A DNA stretch of 64,000 nucleotides from Escherichia coli (lineage in GTDB: Bacteria > Pseudomonadota > Gammaproteobacteria > Enterobacterales > Enterobacteriaceae). A model generated the notes under the pieces. That model did no database searches. It was not told where the DNA came from and saw nothing but the letters and a program-made list of their open reading frames with translations. Location: the NCBI RefSeq assembly GCF_050920415.1, contig NZ_CP169309.1. One strand, written 5' to 3'. Within the stretch, counting starts at the first letter, position 1. The number at the start of each line of letters is the position of its first letter. A program made the position numbers and the translations under genes. Below, one piece after another: positions 3,117-27,940 of this stretch.

Positions 3117-3650
3117 TTATCTGTCGATTCCCCAGCACGCCAGCGCGCTCTCCTGGTCACGACGGGATATCTGACCGTAACAGTTGTTTGAGCGGATACG
3201 GCAGTCTCTGCCACCGTCCTTAATCCACCAGCGAATCGCTTCACACGCTCCCCTGCGATCGCCTGCATTAATTCGTTTATAAAACGTCGACGGGAAACAC
3301 TTACCGGGGCCAATGTTATACGGGCAGAATGACGCGATCCCCGCTTTCTGGGGTTCAGTCAGTGGCACTTTGATGTTTTTCGCCACCCATGCCAGCGCCT
3401 TATCACGTTCAATGGCGTTAACCCGGTCGCATTTTTCCTTTGACAGCTTCATGCCAGGAATAACAGGCTTACCATCCACCCGGGTGGCTCCACGGCAGAT
3501 GGTCCAGATCCCCGCACCATCACGGTATGCCGTGGTGTGGTTACCTTCCTTTTCATCCAGAAACTGGTCGAGGATTTCAGGCGCAGGCGCACCTGCGGCA
3601 ATCAGCGCCAGAACGGCAGCCGACAGACCGTATTTGATTTTGGTGTTCAT
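3117..3650 (-). CDS. SAR endolysin (phage lysozyme R, GH24)
   Basis: 177 aa; N-terminal signal-anchor-release segment (LSAAVLALIAAGA) then lysozyme motif EGNHTTAYRDGAGIWTICRG. Confidence 0.9.
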   Translation of the reverse strand: MNTKIKYGLSAAVLALIAAGAPAPEILDQFLDEKEGNHTTAYRDGAGIWTICRGATRVDGKPVIPGMKLSKEKCDRVNAIERDKALAWVAKNIKVPLTEPQKAGIASFCPYNIGPGKCFPSTFYKRINAGDRRGACEAIRWWIKDGGRDCRIRSNNCYGQISRRDQESALACWGIDR

Positions 3651-4093: not shown

Positions 4094-4102
4094 CGAGCCA
4101 GC

Positions 4103-4743
4103 TTATATACGTCCTTTAAGATAAGTCAGTCCTGGATGAAACCAGTAAGCAGGCACTTTTTTAAAGGGTGGATTATCAAAATCACGAAGAAGAGCCTCCC
4201 GCACAACTGCATCCTTGTCCGCACCACTGGCCAGCGCTTCAATCTCAGCAGCTACCTGCAGATATCCCATGCAACGACCAATGCGCTTCATTAGTCCCTG
4301 CTTTTTATTGTTCTTCAGGTAATCAATGGCAAATTCAATGAGCGCCTCACTGTGCTGGTGCGATGCTGGTGTTACTTTTCCATCTTCACGGATCGTGATA
4401 TTCCAGTCATCGCTTGTCACAATAAAAGATGGCCGATTCCCCCCCCATGCCTGGTCTTTATCCGGTGCAGACGCAATAAAATAACGTTTATTGCCTTCCT
4501 CTCCGGCACTTTTAACTGTAATGGAGTACTTTTCTGACAATGCGGTCGGTAAAAACTTTTCCTGCAAAATCTTCTCAAAGGTCCTGCGAGCAATTTTGAT
4601 GCAATCATCGTAAAACGCTGCTTCCTGCTCATCGCGGCGTTTTTTTCATCTTCAGAAACCATCAGCACCGACAGTTTTTTATTCAGTTCAGTGATTTCAT
4701 TTTCCAGGCAACTTATGCGCTGATTCATTTCTTCATGGTTCAT
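4103..4743 (-). pseudogene. Hypothetical protein gene between holin and endolysin, interrupted by a frameshift (ORFs 4417-4743 and 4103-4567)
   Basis: N-terminal ORF (MNHEEMNQRISCLENEITELNKKLSVLMVSEDEK) and C-terminal ORF (...QEKFLPTALSEKYSITVKSAGEE...) join into one plausible protein if the A/T run at 4640-4646 had one more base (EDEKKRRDEQEAAFYDDCIKIARRTFEKILQEKF). Confidence 0.5.
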
Positions 4744-4746
4744 CGT

Positions 4747-4962
4747 CTACTCTCCCCGCGCCGCCTTACGCCGGTCCTCTCTGATTTTGAAATACAGGTT
4801 AGTCAGGTACGTCAGCAGGCCAAACAGCAGACTCCCCAGCACACCTATCGCCACCCACTGGGACGGAGAGACTTTGTCCAGCAGCTGCAGTAACCAGTAT
4901 CCCGTCCCCACCGCTGACGTGGTGTATGACACACCTGTTGTGATTTTTTCCATCTGGTACAT
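4747..4962 (-). CDS. Holin (lambdoid EssD-like, dual-start motif)
   Basis: 71 aa [71 protein letters not shown]; matches remembered DLP12 EssD; Met-x-x-Met dual start. Confidence 0.85.
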
Positions 4963-5264
4963 ACCCCGTCTCCCGTTATCCGGAAACTGACAACAATAAA
5001 AAAGCCACCCGTTAATTACTGATGGCTCTGATGCATAAACGTCATCATTCCTGACCGTTATGATTGACAATGGTTATCATTTTTATATAAAAATACTCCC
5101 GATATGTGTTACATATCATTTCTCCACGGGGAATATCCCCACGCCAGCGTCAGACTCGTTTTCCCGTTCTCTTCTGTGCTGGCGTTTTTTTTATTATGAT
5201 GTCGGTACATTTATCTCCAGCACCAGGCTTTCAATCTCAACACCATACGCGGAATTTTTGGGCG

Positions 5265-5523: not shown

Positions 5524-5688
5524 TTAACTACCTGGCATGTCCTTTTTCACCAAAGGAAAAAGCACCACCACAATACCGACCACCAGCACTCCATCCGCCA
5601 GCACCGACATGATCCTGCTGGTGAAATCCACCATCACCACCAGAAACAGCAGGAGTGCCACAGCGGCCAGACGCAGTTTTACCGTCAC
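5524..5688 (-). CDS. Small hydrophobic membrane protein (54 aa), translationally coupled to TerB-like gene
   Basis: GTG start overlapping the TerB-like TGA stop (GTGA); GGAGAA RBS; product VTVKLRLAAVALLLFLVVMVDFTSRIMSVLADGVLVVGIVVVLFPLVKKDMPGS is almost wholly hydrophobic; below the ORF-track length cut-off. Confidence 0.4.
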   Translation of the reverse strand: MTVKLRLAAVALLLFLVVMVDFTSRIMSVLADGVLVVGIVVVLFPLVKKDMPGS

Positions 5689-6116
5689 AGGTGGTTCTCC
5701 AGTCGCAGGCCAAGAACACCAGCAATCTCTTCCAGAACCTTACGCTCTTCCGGCTCAATTTCACCATCTGCTTCAGCAATGGCCACCGCCACATCCAGCA
5801 CATCTTCCGCTTCACGCGTATCGTGTTTCACATCTTCAATTTCACGCAACGCTGCACGACGACCAATTTTAAAATTGGTGTCAAGCTGACCTGTGATCGT
5901 GGCACTGATGGCATTAATTTCTGACGTAAACGTGGACAACGCTGGCTGGTTACGTAATACCTGTTCGATCTTCGCTTTCTCTGAAGTCTCACATTCACCA
6001 TCTGCATAGGCCACTAGGTAGGCAGCATTAATAACCGCCTGTGCCAGATCGCGTTTCTCAAACTTTTTAATTTCAGTTGCTGCTCTGCGGGTTTTCTTTT
6101 TGAAAATACCAAACAT
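5685..6116 (-). CDS. TerB-like (tellurite-resistance TerB domain) protein
   Basis: 143 aa with paired acidic helices typical of TerB (LAQAVINAAYLVAYADGECETSEKAKIEQVL ... VLDVAVAIAEADGEIEPEERKVLEEIAGVLGL). Confidence 0.7.
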   Translation of the reverse strand: MFGIFKKKTRRAATEIKKFEKRDLAQAVINAAYLVAYADGECETSEKAKIEQVLRNQPALSTFTSEINAISATITGQLDTNFKIGRRAALREIEDVKHDTREAEDVLDVAVAIAEADGEIEPEERKVLEEIAGVLGLRLENHL

Positions 6117-6289
6117 CGTGACTTTTCCTTTTAGTGGGTGAGCCTGCGCCCTGCGGGGACCAGCCCACAGAGAAAGTCACACTGACCATCCCGTAAGCTC
6201 CCCCCTGAAAAGCTCTGTGGTTTTTGATATACGCCGGGCGTGGCGCGGATACAAAAAAGGCCCGCAAAAGCGAGCCAGGAAAATAAGTA

Positions 6290-6366
6290 TGGCGCGTTGT
6301 ACTGGATTCGAACCAGTGACCGATTGCTTAGAAGGCAATTGCTCTGTCCGACTGAGCTAACAACGC
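6290..6366 (-). tRNA. tRNA-Arg (anticodon UCU), phage-encoded
   Basis: Minus strand GCGTTGTTAGCTCAGTCGGACAGAGCAATTGCCTTCTAAGCAATCGGTCACTGGTTCGAATCCAGTACAACGCGCCA folds as a canonical cloverleaf with anticodon loop CTTCTAA. Confidence 0.85.
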
Positions 6367-6379
6367 ATGATGCAGATAA

Positions 6380-6460
6380 TGGACCGCCATCGAGGACTCG
6401 AACCCCGCACCAACAACCCTGTTATCGTGTCGTCTGCTCTTCCTGATGAGCTAATGGCGG
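6380..6460 (-). tRNA. Atypical tRNA-like gene (acceptor, D and T arms present; anticodon arm does not fold canonically; possibly degenerate)
   Basis: Minus strand CCGCCATTAGCTCATCAGGAAGAGCAGACGACACGATAACAGGGTTGTTGGTGCGGGGTTCGAGTCCTCGATGGCGGTCCA: acceptor pairing, GCTC/GAGC D stem, GTTCGAGTC T arm and CCA end, but 27 nt between D and T stems. Confidence 0.45.
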
Positions 6461-6467
6461 TACGTTA

Positions 6468-6542
6468 TGGTGGCCCTGCTGGATTTGAACCAGCGACCTG
6501 GCGATTATGAGTCGCTCACTCTCACCACTGAGCTAAAGGGCC
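6468..6542 (-). tRNA. tRNA with CAU anticodon (resembles E. coli tRNA-Ile2, lysidine type; could be Met type)
   Basis: Minus strand GGCCCTTTAGCTCAGTGGTGAGAGTGAGCGACTCATAATCGCCAGGTCGCTGGTTCAAATCCAGCAGGGCCACCA; anticodon loop CTCATAA; acceptor stem one pair short of canonical. Confidence 0.8.
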
Positions 6543-6582
6543 GGGCGCAGGATAATAACGGTACGTAACTAATTCTGCAATA

Positions 6583-7641
6583 TCATCCGTTCTGACTGAC
6601 TAAATCCTGAACTTCCTTGACCGTCTGCTCAAAACGCTCAGTCTCCAGCTCAACGCCAATTGCACGACGTCCCAGCGCCATCGATGCTTTGACCGTCGAA
6701 CCCGACCCCATGAAAAAATCTGCAACCAGATCTCCCGGACGACTGCTTGCGCTGATTATCTGCTGCAACATTTCTGCCGGTTTTTCGCACGGATGTTTCC
6801 CGGGATAGTACTGCACCGGTTTATGCATCCACACATCGGTGTACGGCACCTGCACAGTCACACCGAAATACCGCCGCAAATTTTTATATTCTCTCAGCAG
6901 TTCCGTATACTGCCGGTTCAGTTCACTGTATGTGCTGACCAGCTGGTGGTGTGGCTGCTCCAGTTCACCGCGCTGATGTTTTTCTGCTGCAACACGCGCA
7001 AACAACGCCTGCAATTTGTTGTAATCAGCTTCGTTCGGTAACTGCCACTGACTGGTACCAAACCAGTGCGAAGCCATGTTTTTCTTTCCGGTGGCTTCCG
7101 CTATCTGTTTTGACGTTATTCCCAGTTCGGCACGAGCATCCCTGAAATACGATATCAGCGGTGCCATTATGTGCTGTTTGAGTTCCCTTTCTTTTGCCGC
7201 ATAGCCGTCACTTTTGCCGCGATATGGCCCCTGGTAATGTTCAGCAAACAGAACGCGCTCTGTGGCAGGAAAATATGCGCGCAGACTTTCTTTATTACAC
7301 CCATTCCAACGTCCGGACGGCTTCGCCCAGATGATATGGTTAAGCACGTTGAAACGTTCACGCATCATGATCTCAATATCAGATGCCAGGCGATGCCCAC
7401 AGAACAGGTAAAGGCTTCCGGCAGGTTTCAACACCCGCCAGAACTGGGCCAGACAGTGGTCCAGCCACTTAAGATAATCTTCGTCCCCTTTCCACTGATT
7501 GTCCCAACCGTTGGGTTTCACCTTGAAGTAAGGCGGATCGGTAACAATCAGGTCAATGGAATCATCAGGCAGGGACTGAATAAAATGCAGGCAATCAGCG
7601 TTGATTAAATCAACACTGTTTATTTTTACAGTATTTTTCAT
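6583..7641 (-). CDS. DNA methyltransferase (N6-adenine or N4-cytosine, DPPY motif), no adjacent restriction enzyme
   Basis: 352 aa with IVTDPPYF catalytic motif and C-terminal AdoMet motif DLVADFFMGSGST. Confidence 0.85.
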   Translation of the reverse strand: MKNTVKINSVDLINADCLHFIQSLPDDSIDLIVTDPPYFKVKPNGWDNQWKGDEDYLKWLDHCLAQFWRVLKPAGSLYLFCGHRLASDIEIMMRERFNVLNHIIWAKPSGRWNGCNKESLRAYFPATERVLFAEHYQGPYRGKSDGYAAKERELKQHIMAPLISYFRDARAELGITSKQIAEATGKKNMASHWFGTSQWQLPNEADYNKLQALFARVAAEKHQRGELEQPHHQLVSTYSELNRQYTELLREYKNLRRYFGVTVQVPYTDVWMHKPVQYYPGKHPCEKPAEMLQQIISASSRPGDLVADFFMGSGSTVKASMALGRRAIGVELETERFEQTVKEVQDLVSQNG

Positions 7642-8796: not shown

Positions 8797-9162
8797 CTAA
8801 CGATCCATCTCTAGCTCAATTTCTAACATCATTAACATGCCATCAACTACACCTTCAGCCTTTTGCAATAAACGCCCAACCCAGCAATCAGAACGCCCAT
8901 GTTTACGGGCAAGCGCCATAAACGTCATACCACCTACATAATAATCCACTAATAAATCGTGCAAATCGCTGTTGTTCTTTTTCAGGCGAGCCATGCACCC
9001 ACAAATGATCATCGCGTCATCGTCACAACATTGCGGGCGGGATTTTACTTTTGAAGGGATTAGTCCTTTAAATCCTGCAGCAATAGACGACCAGGTGACA
9101 TCCTCGTGATTATTTGCCACCCATGCCCCCCAACGTTCAAGAACCATTTGAATATCACGCAT
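8797..9162 (-). CDS. Late antitermination protein Q (QuuD-like)
   Basis: [14 protein letters not shown]...[35 protein letters not shown]...ELEMDR; recognised as DLP12 QuuD-type Q with Cys cluster. Confidence 0.85.
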
Positions 9163-9179
9163 CAACTTTCTCCACAAAA

Positions 9180-27617: not shown

Positions 27618-27704
27618 GCGAAGGTGGCGGAATTGGTAGACGCGCTAGCTTCAGGTGTTAGTGTCCTTACGGACGTGGGGGTTCAAGTCCCCCCCCTCGC
27701 ACCA
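27618..27704 (+). tRNA. leuQ: tRNA-Leu (CAG)
   Basis: GCGAAGGTGGCGGAATTGGTAGACGCGCTAGCTTCAGGTGTTAGTGTCCTTACGGACGTGGGGGTTCAAGTCCCCCCCCTCGCACCA; class II tRNA, anticodon CAG. Confidence 0.9.
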
Positions 27705-27732
27705 AAAACCACGTTGATATTGCTCGCACTGG

Positions 27733-27819
27733 GCGAAGGTGGCGGAATTGGTAGACGCGCTAGCTTCAGGTGTTAGTGTTCTTACGGACGTGGGGGTTCA
27801 AGTCCCCCCCCTCGCACCA
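27733..27819 (+). tRNA. leuP: tRNA-Leu (CAG)
   Basis: Second near-identical copy (one T/C difference in variable arm). Confidence 0.9.
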
Positions 27820-27853
27820 AACGAGGCGATATCAAAAAAAGTAAGATGACTGT

Positions 27854-27940
27854 GCGAAGGTGGCGGAATTGGTAGACGCGCTAGCTTCAGGTGTTAGTGT
27901 CCTTACGGACGTGGGGGTTCAAGTCCCCCCCCTCGCACCA
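27854..27940 (+). tRNA. leuV: tRNA-Leu (CAG)
   Basis: Third copy, identical to the first. Confidence 0.9.

Follow-up and report, generated by a model that had tools for sequence, protein, structure and literature searches.

In the Stx2a phage PA33 (KP682385; 933W type), the slot between ileZ and argO holds argN, a canonical tRNA-Arg(UCG) gene of 77 nt with a 9-nt D loop, an anticodon stem CCAGC/GCUGG and a 7-nt loop CUUCGAA. In the Stx2e phage P27 (AJ249351, NC_003356), only ileZ and argO are annotated, and the 101-nt gap between them is left blank. The tRNA cluster of phage T4 offers an analogy only: its species 1 and 2 RNAs are stable, small, tRNA-like RNAs, which are processed and encoded among real tRNA genes. 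On the Escherichia chromosome, a tRNA-like sequence was described in xtpA (Muto et al., J Biochem 2022;171:459, PMID 35081614), here as the work is presented in the portion of PMC10767902 that cites it. Our literature searches on the ileZ/argN/argO cluster and on the tRNA-like sequence at yahM yielded nothing useful. The abstract of the xtpA study is said to liken the element to the Arg-tRNA of phages and pathogenicity islands; therefore, the relationship between the phage and the chromosomal sequences is already known in outline.

We analyzed a 64-kb stretch of Escherichia coli DNA (the window) in which a trio of tRNA and tRNA-like genes sits in the late region of a lambdoid prophage, downstream of Q. 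The order on the minus strand is DUF968, Q, DNA methylase, tRNA trio, terminator-like hairpin, TerB, holin and lysozyme, with the following coordinates:

8797-9177, minus strand, antiterminator Q
6583..7641, minus strand, DNA methylase gene directly upstream of the trio (Pfam N6_N4_Mtase, E = 1.3e-43)
6580-6575 (TTGCAG), 17-nt spacer, 6557-6552 (TATTAT), minus strand, promoter-like element upstream of the CAU tRNA (sequence reading)
6468..6542 (6469..6543 in the ARAGORN call), minus strand, CAU tRNA of the ileZ type, tRNA-Ile2/Met (ARAGORN; Rfam, 59.4 bits)
6460..6380, minus strand, middle tRNA-like gene, 81 nt, between the CAU tRNA and tRNA-Arg(UCU) (read from the sequence)
6290..6366, minus strand, canonical tRNA-Arg(UCU) of the argO type (ARAGORN; Rfam, 71.7 bits)
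6259..6276, minus strand, intrinsic terminator-like hairpin followed by a T run, 3' of tRNA-Arg(UCU)
5685-6116, minus strand, TerB-family gene
4747-5070, minus strand, holin
3117-3650, minus strand, lysozyme

The middle gene thus occupies the argN slot, i.e., it lies between an ileZ-type CAU tRNA and a tRNA-Arg(UCU), downstream of Q. It is the sole copy within the 64-kb window, and the spacers that flank it measure 7 and 13 nt. The tRNA-Arg(UCU) gene is identical to argO of phage P27 (77/77). In the CAU tRNA, acceptor pair 7-66 is missing, as seen from a gap in the Rfam alignment and from an alignment with three phage homologs: a single A stands at 6477 where all homologs have AA, which bears out the sequence-only reading of this gene as one acceptor pair short. 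The D stem of the same tRNA carries a C-to-U change at 6518 relative to every homolog. Only one E. coli genome among 5,426 (NZ_CP169399.1) carries this allele, while the gene itself is present in 7,228 copies in 2,930 genomes; the 1-nt deletion is a private change of recent origin or else an error of the assembly. Upstream of the CAU tRNA, the -10 region of the promoter-like element is invariant in four phage homologs. The consensus promoter scanner did not report the element at 6552..6580, because its -35 hexamer matches at only 3/6 positions; the TTGCAG-17-TATTAT arrangement may nevertheless act as a weak promoter. Further along the window, three tandem tRNA-Leu(CAG) genes (27618-27940, plus strand) look like a host leucine tRNA operon, so the window spans both prophage and chromosomal DNA. 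Beside the holin, a hypothetical gene (about window 4100-4740, minus strand; L004 4728-5368) is flagged as frameshifted by RefSeq in E. coli MFDS1022581, the strain of record NZ_CP169399.1; either the prophage is degrading or the assembly contains indel errors.

Written 5' to 3', the middle gene reads CCGCCAU UA GCUC AUCAGGAA GAGC A GACGACACGAUAACAGGGUUGUUGGUG CGGGG UUCGAGU CCUCG AUGGCGG U CCA, and its parts can be assigned as follows:

6460-6454, minus strand, 5' strand of the acceptor stem
6451-6436, minus strand, D arm
6434-6408, minus strand, remodelled anticodon/variable region of 27 nt, GACGACACGAUAACAGGGUUGUUGGUG
6407-6391, minus strand, T arm
6390-6384, minus strand, 3' strand of the acceptor stem
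6383, minus strand, U73, followed by the encoded CCA at 6382-6380

All the features of an elongator-tRNA body (acceptor, D arm with G18G19, T-Psi-C-type loop and CCA) are present, and the Rfam alignment pairs the three arms. By sequence reading, the acceptor stem is a perfect 7-bp helix opening with C1-G72. The D arm has a 4-bp stem and an 8-nt loop, AUCAGGAA, in which G18G19 and A20 are retained, and the T arm has a 5-bp stem and the loop UUCGAGU. The slot for the anticodon arm and variable loop holds 27 nt, against 21-22 expected; the description of intact arms and a CCA end around an oversized central region holds. What is missing is a regular anticodon arm, with a 5-bp stem, a 7-nt loop and, within that loop, U33, the anticodon at 34-36 and purine 37. 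We also considered a class II tRNA with a long variable arm, and rejected it as, on manual reading, the 27 nt cannot be divided into a 17-nt arm and a paired variable arm. Fold stability (z-score of only -0.96) was uninformative as evidence for the gene.

Comparison with argN of PA33 places the middle gene in the same lineage. The acceptor, D and T arm sequences are common to the window gene and the argN lineage in our alignments and allele survey; with PA33 argN the gene shares the acceptor CCGCCAU/AUGGCGG including C1-G72, the D stem, the T arm, the 3' flank and A20. The two are identical at 66/81 positions, and the window gene differs by its 8-nt D loop and by 27 unrelated nucleotides in place of the argN anticodon region. 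C1, rather than G, at the 5' end had been listed among the oddities of the gene; the base is indeed there, yet since canonical argN has it too, C1 is a lineage trait and not damage. A UCG anticodon with the arginine identity element C35 cannot be defined in the window gene, although A20 is kept. In the alignment with Stx-type phages that the sequence-only reading had proposed, this canonical argN(UCG) is the occupant of the Stx2a slot, while the corresponding element of the Stx2e phage P27 is 80/81 identical to the window gene. The trio and flanks of P27 match the window at 97.7% over 301 nt. The one difference, a C-to-G change, creates a G-G mismatch in the T stem of the P27 element, whereas the T stem of the window gene is intact. 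Downstream of the trio, P27 carries stx2e, and the window prophage carries the TerB-family gene.

The non-canonical character of the gene is reflected in how search tools treat it. ARAGORN called tRNA(CAU) and tRNA-Arg(UCU) and nothing between them. The Rfam tRNA model (RF00005) missed the gene in a 1.2-kb search (5800-7000) at E up to 10, and recovered it in a 95-nt search (6372-6466) with 33.3 bits and E = 5.8e-6, at the cost of a 12-nt insertion in the anticodon loop; with a gathering score of 29 bits, it is above threshold in the narrow search only. The same model gave 71.7 bits to tRNA-Arg(UCU) and 59.4 bits to the CAU tRNA. A high-scoring canonical fold with a defined anticodon, the outcome that would speak against a non-canonical gene, was thus not obtained: ARAGORN gave none and the Rfam match is marginal. 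The dependence of the Rfam outcome on the search span is itself a filter effect for weak tRNA-like matches. Rfam families other than tRNA matched the gene at chance level only, including a YrlA match which spans two genes (E = 0.26). As for annotation, an identical copy in E. coli MFDS1022581 is labelled tRNA-OTHER, 81 nt, by NCBI PGAP/RefSeq; this genome equals the window exactly over the two stretches compared (101 nt and 99 nt).

We examined how the 27-nt region folds. Three 5-bp registers are available if G-U pairs are included, and they close loops of 11, 12 or 13 nt; the canonical register is among them and pairs GACGA/UUGUU, yet closes no 7-nt loop. The earlier statement that a clean 5-bp anticodon stem is lacking was therefore too broad as regards the pairing, and right in that none of the stems closes a loop of 7 nt. 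The minimum-free-energy hairpin is CGAUAAC/GUUGUUG with a triloop AGG (pair probability about 0.71); at -27.5 kcal/mol it is more stable than the stem in the family register (-24.4) or in the canonical register (-21.8). The window arm contains an extra 5' stem strand (ACGAC, then ACGAU) and a shortened variable region. The motif CGAUAAC equals the stem of the relative in Yersinia phage YeP1; comparison with this relative and with the xtpA copy suggests that the 5' stem strand of the window gene is duplicated or hybrid, and the anticodon form as a whole looks derived from an xtpA-like chromosomal sequence. Among the explanations offered earlier for the odd region, a degenerate or non-decoding gene fits these results, while an odd variable region does not, as the extra bases lie in the anticodon arm.

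An artefact of sequencing or assembly is another conceivable account of such an arm, and it could draw on the private 1-nt deletion in the adjoining CAU tRNA and on the frameshifted gene nearby in the matching genome. However, the exact 81-nt sequence is present in 9 independent records among those searched, 27 E. coli genome records match a 101-nt stretch around the element with at least 99% identity, and P27 differs by one base. These data refute the artefact for the middle gene, for which we regard it as practically excluded; the deletion in the CAU tRNA may be an artefact. The same 101-nt stretch is matched at 95-99% in 50 further records and at 90-95% in about 994, and the copies examined from the latter band are of a type with an altered T loop.

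To place the window allele among its sisters, we surveyed 102 slots in viral contigs, anchored solely on the 3' end of the ileZ-type tRNA. The forms found are:

36 of 102, argN (UCG) with a normal T loop
25 of 102, P27-type arm, as in the window
12 of 102, CCUUUAA loop, called Lys(UUU) by ARAGORN
10 of 102, argN (UCG) with an altered T loop or 3' end
10 of 102, Arg(UCU)
5 of 102, anticodon arm deleted
4 of 102, no homologous gene

In 23 of the 25 copies with the P27-type arm, the T loop is altered (GCGGGU, GGCGGGU or CCGGGU) and accompanied by a D-stem change, although these copies probably stem from one or two events, so that the figure overstates independent decay. The consensus T loop is kept, as in the window, in only 2/25. 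Other sister alleles show the T-stem G-G mismatch of P27, a C7-A66 mismatch or a G-to-A change in the acceptor, and between close relatives the middle gene has accumulated 4-5 changes vs. 0-2 in its neighbours. Two other occupants of the slot deserve a comment. The CCUUUAA variant, the one called tRNA-Lys(UUU), carries C33 and is common (e.g., L003 1604-1679 and L179 1501-1577). Some of its alleles, in PPompW prophages and phage Evi, have U70 and hence a G3-U70 wobble, which is the alanine identity element. At five loci (L181, L211, L220, L234 and L255), the slot after ileZ has lost nearly the whole anticodon arm (GAACGUCACCCUGUGCGAG...) and keeps the acceptor and T stems.

Pattern searches revealed relatives that join this body to short loops of unrelated sequence, in tightly packed tRNA operons of phages or prophages of Cedecea, Citrobacter, Klebsiella, Yokenella, Salmonella and Yersinia, and in metagenomic viral contigs (loci L160, L162, L163, L165, L168, L170, L173, L175, L081, L118, L131 and L286-L334). 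Like the window gene, they combine the conserved body with a stem of the type (A/G)C(A/G)AC/GUUGU and are usually second in their cluster, after an ileZ-like tRNA. They differ in having a near-canonical geometry and spacers of 1-3 nt, whereas the window gene has an enlarged loop and spacers of 7 and 13 nt. Their loops are 3-7 nt long, mostly 6, and always end in U. The relative in Yersinia phage YeP1 is annotated as tRNA-OTHER/tRNA-Pseudo-TTG, and for several others ARAGORN reports "tRNA-???" with two-base anticodons in 6-nt loops. Such calls, together with the ability of engineered tRNAs with altered loop sizes to shift frame, might be taken to mean that the gene encodes a decoding tRNA with an expanded or otherwise unusual anticodon loop, e.g., a frameshift suppressor or a reader of an odd codon. 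This is very improbable: the loops available in the window gene are of 11-13 nt or a triloop, the U33/purine-37 pattern is absent, the loops of the relatives share only the terminal U, and loop length ranges from 3 to 13 nt.

The distribution of changes along these elements is uneven. Mean pairwise identity was determined in two samples, of which sample 1 was collected with search patterns derived from the body of the element and is biased accordingly, and sample 2 was anchored on the downstream tRNA-Thr, with the elements still extracted by a D-arm landmark. It reached 0.93 (sample 1) and 0.94 (sample 2) for the body of the tRNA-like element, 0.90 and 0.94 for the neighbouring CAU tRNA, 0.65 and 0.78 for the anticodon region of the element, and 0.63 and 0.74 for upstream non-coding DNA. 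Within the body, acceptor pair 7-66 covaries between U-A and C-G and the arms are otherwise nearly invariant. Covariation statistics on the body were uninformative (one compensatory pair, with shuffle controls not exceeded), and the anticodon hairpins of the subfamilies could not be aligned to one structure.

The chromosomal relative lies in about 5,200 of the 5,426 E. coli genomes, just upstream of yahM, and is about 87% identical to the window gene (86.9% over 82 nt). In the K-12 annotation, xtpA (b4845, 60 aa), for which phenotypes involving GcvB and aminoglycosides are reported, spans this element (L180 3335-3415, equal to K-12 345334-345414); further copies were located at L005 2502-2582, L155, L159 and L167. 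The chromosomal element shares with the window gene the acceptor, the 8-nt D loop AUCAGGAA, the AGACGAC start and GUUGU 3' strand of the anticodon region, and U73-CCA. It differs in its 7-bp stem, 6-nt loop CCAGGA, 6-nt variable region and T loop UUCGAGG, and no Rfam family matched it at E up to 10. It also differs in context, as it is found in a leaderless mRNA encoding XtpA, outside any tRNA operon. No ORF of this kind accompanies the window copy. That the window element might likewise be read as an XtpA-like peptide is suggested by the annotation of K-12 xtpA across the homologous element, which goes back to Muto et al. (2022) as far as that study is cited in PMC10767902. Yet, the equivalent frame in the window lacks a start codon and is closed by a stop that precedes the element by two codons, and no ORF of at least 50 aa covers the element on that strand, which leaves this reading hardly tenable.

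On the chromosome, the element itself is the constant part. Among E. coli, a cryptic-clade Escherichia strain and E. albertii, 0/81 of its sites vary, against 51/150 upstream and 50/60 downstream in the same sequences; 8 Escherichia genomes, that of E. albertii among them, carry the identical element between flanks which diverge by at least 30%, and it is unchanged in 4,821 of 5,170 E. coli records. The XtpA frame is intact in K-12 and three other genomes. Elsewhere it is broken: in two genomes a frameshift leaves 21 codons, and in E. albertii and one further genome a TAG leaves 3. These comparisons suggest that the xtpA element is constrained at the RNA or DNA level, independently of the XtpA peptide.

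Since the element remains constant where the XtpA frame is broken, a trans-acting role for the family stays alive as a rival explanation. The window gene would then specify a functional stand-alone, non-decoding tRNA-like RNA whose L-shaped body, and perhaps variable hairpin, would act in trans, e.g., as a regulator, or as a decoy or partner of a tRNA-recognizing protein of host or phage. The constancy of the xtpA copy even with the frame at 3 or 21 codons speaks for such a role, as do its unchanged sequence in most E. coli records, the retention of the body in relatives from six genera whose loops differ freely, and the U-A/C-G covariation at pair 7-66. Against it, nothing points to a partner or target, the discriminator base varies between U, A and C, which argues against a fixed synthetase, the majority of the P27-type arms in E. 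coli prophages go with a lost T loop, and constraint on the body only is equally predicted by a role in processing. The complement of the 12-nt loop is no more frequent in the window than expected by chance, either; it has 5 other matches at 2 mismatches, and we rejected the antisense or kissing-loop idea, which had been modelled on P1 C4 and P4 CI, both RNAs processed by RNase P. Altogether, we hold a trans-acting RNA to be unlikely, although it is the main rival reading.

The middle gene is a homolog of argN and of the xtpA element which occupies the argN slot, retains an intact tRNA body and has no 7-nt anticodon loop. We consider it rather likely that it is a non-decoding pseudo-tRNA of the argN/xtpA lineage, probably made and processed, with at most a structural role, and apparently decaying in E. 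coli prophages. According to this proposal, small rearrangements would have rebuilt the anticodon arm of an argN-lineage tRNA through a duplicated or hybrid 5' stem strand and a shortened variable region. The gene would share a transcript with both neighbouring tRNAs, be it the phage late transcript, one begun at the weak upstream promoter, or both; RNase P would cut its 5' end, and cleavage plus trimming ahead of the next tRNA would free its 3' end. The product may be pictured as an L-shaped RNA with an encoded CCA, unable to pair with a codon. Arginyl-tRNA synthetase of E. coli requires C35; as the middle gene has no C35, we propose that its RNA is neither charged with arginine nor able to decode.

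The sole plausible role for such a pseudo-tRNA would be that of a tRNA-shaped processing handle between two real tRNAs. In its substrates, RNase P recognizes the stack of acceptor and T arm together with the elbow, and does not read the anticodon arm. A body conserved like that of a real tRNA together with a drifting anticodon arm, as seen in the packed operons, would fit the role of an RNase P-substrate spacer. In the E. coli prophage lineage, the handle appears dispensable. The longer spacers there might relax the need for processing, which, judging from a correlation across two lineages, is consistent with the decay of the T loop. The body of the window allele is fully intact, though, and on its sequence this particular gene cannot be called dead. 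A broader interpretation, which we advance only tentatively and regard as doubtful, is that enterobacterial prophages and the Escherichia chromosome share a hitherto undescribed family of tRNA-like RNAs that do not decode, with the window gene as one member, in which the body would be under selection, the hairpin would be free or diversifying, and the xtpA member would have an RNA function independent of the peptide.

For Stx-type phages, our results imply that the middle gene should be left out of the count of phage tRNAs in arguments on rare-codon supply, as in prophages of the P27 type only two of the three genes of the trio would be able to decode. The middle slot proves highly plastic, with Arg(UCG), Arg(UCU), CCUUUAA "Lys", short-loop, arm-deleted and enlarged-loop forms (102 slots surveyed), and these variants provide a natural series on what keeps a tRNA body alive after decoding has been lost. 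The findings also link the phage gene to the recently named xtpA of E. coli and prompt one to ask what is conserved at that locus, a gene for a peptide or an RNA. The wider pattern of the family and the conservation of xtpA are the parts worth following.
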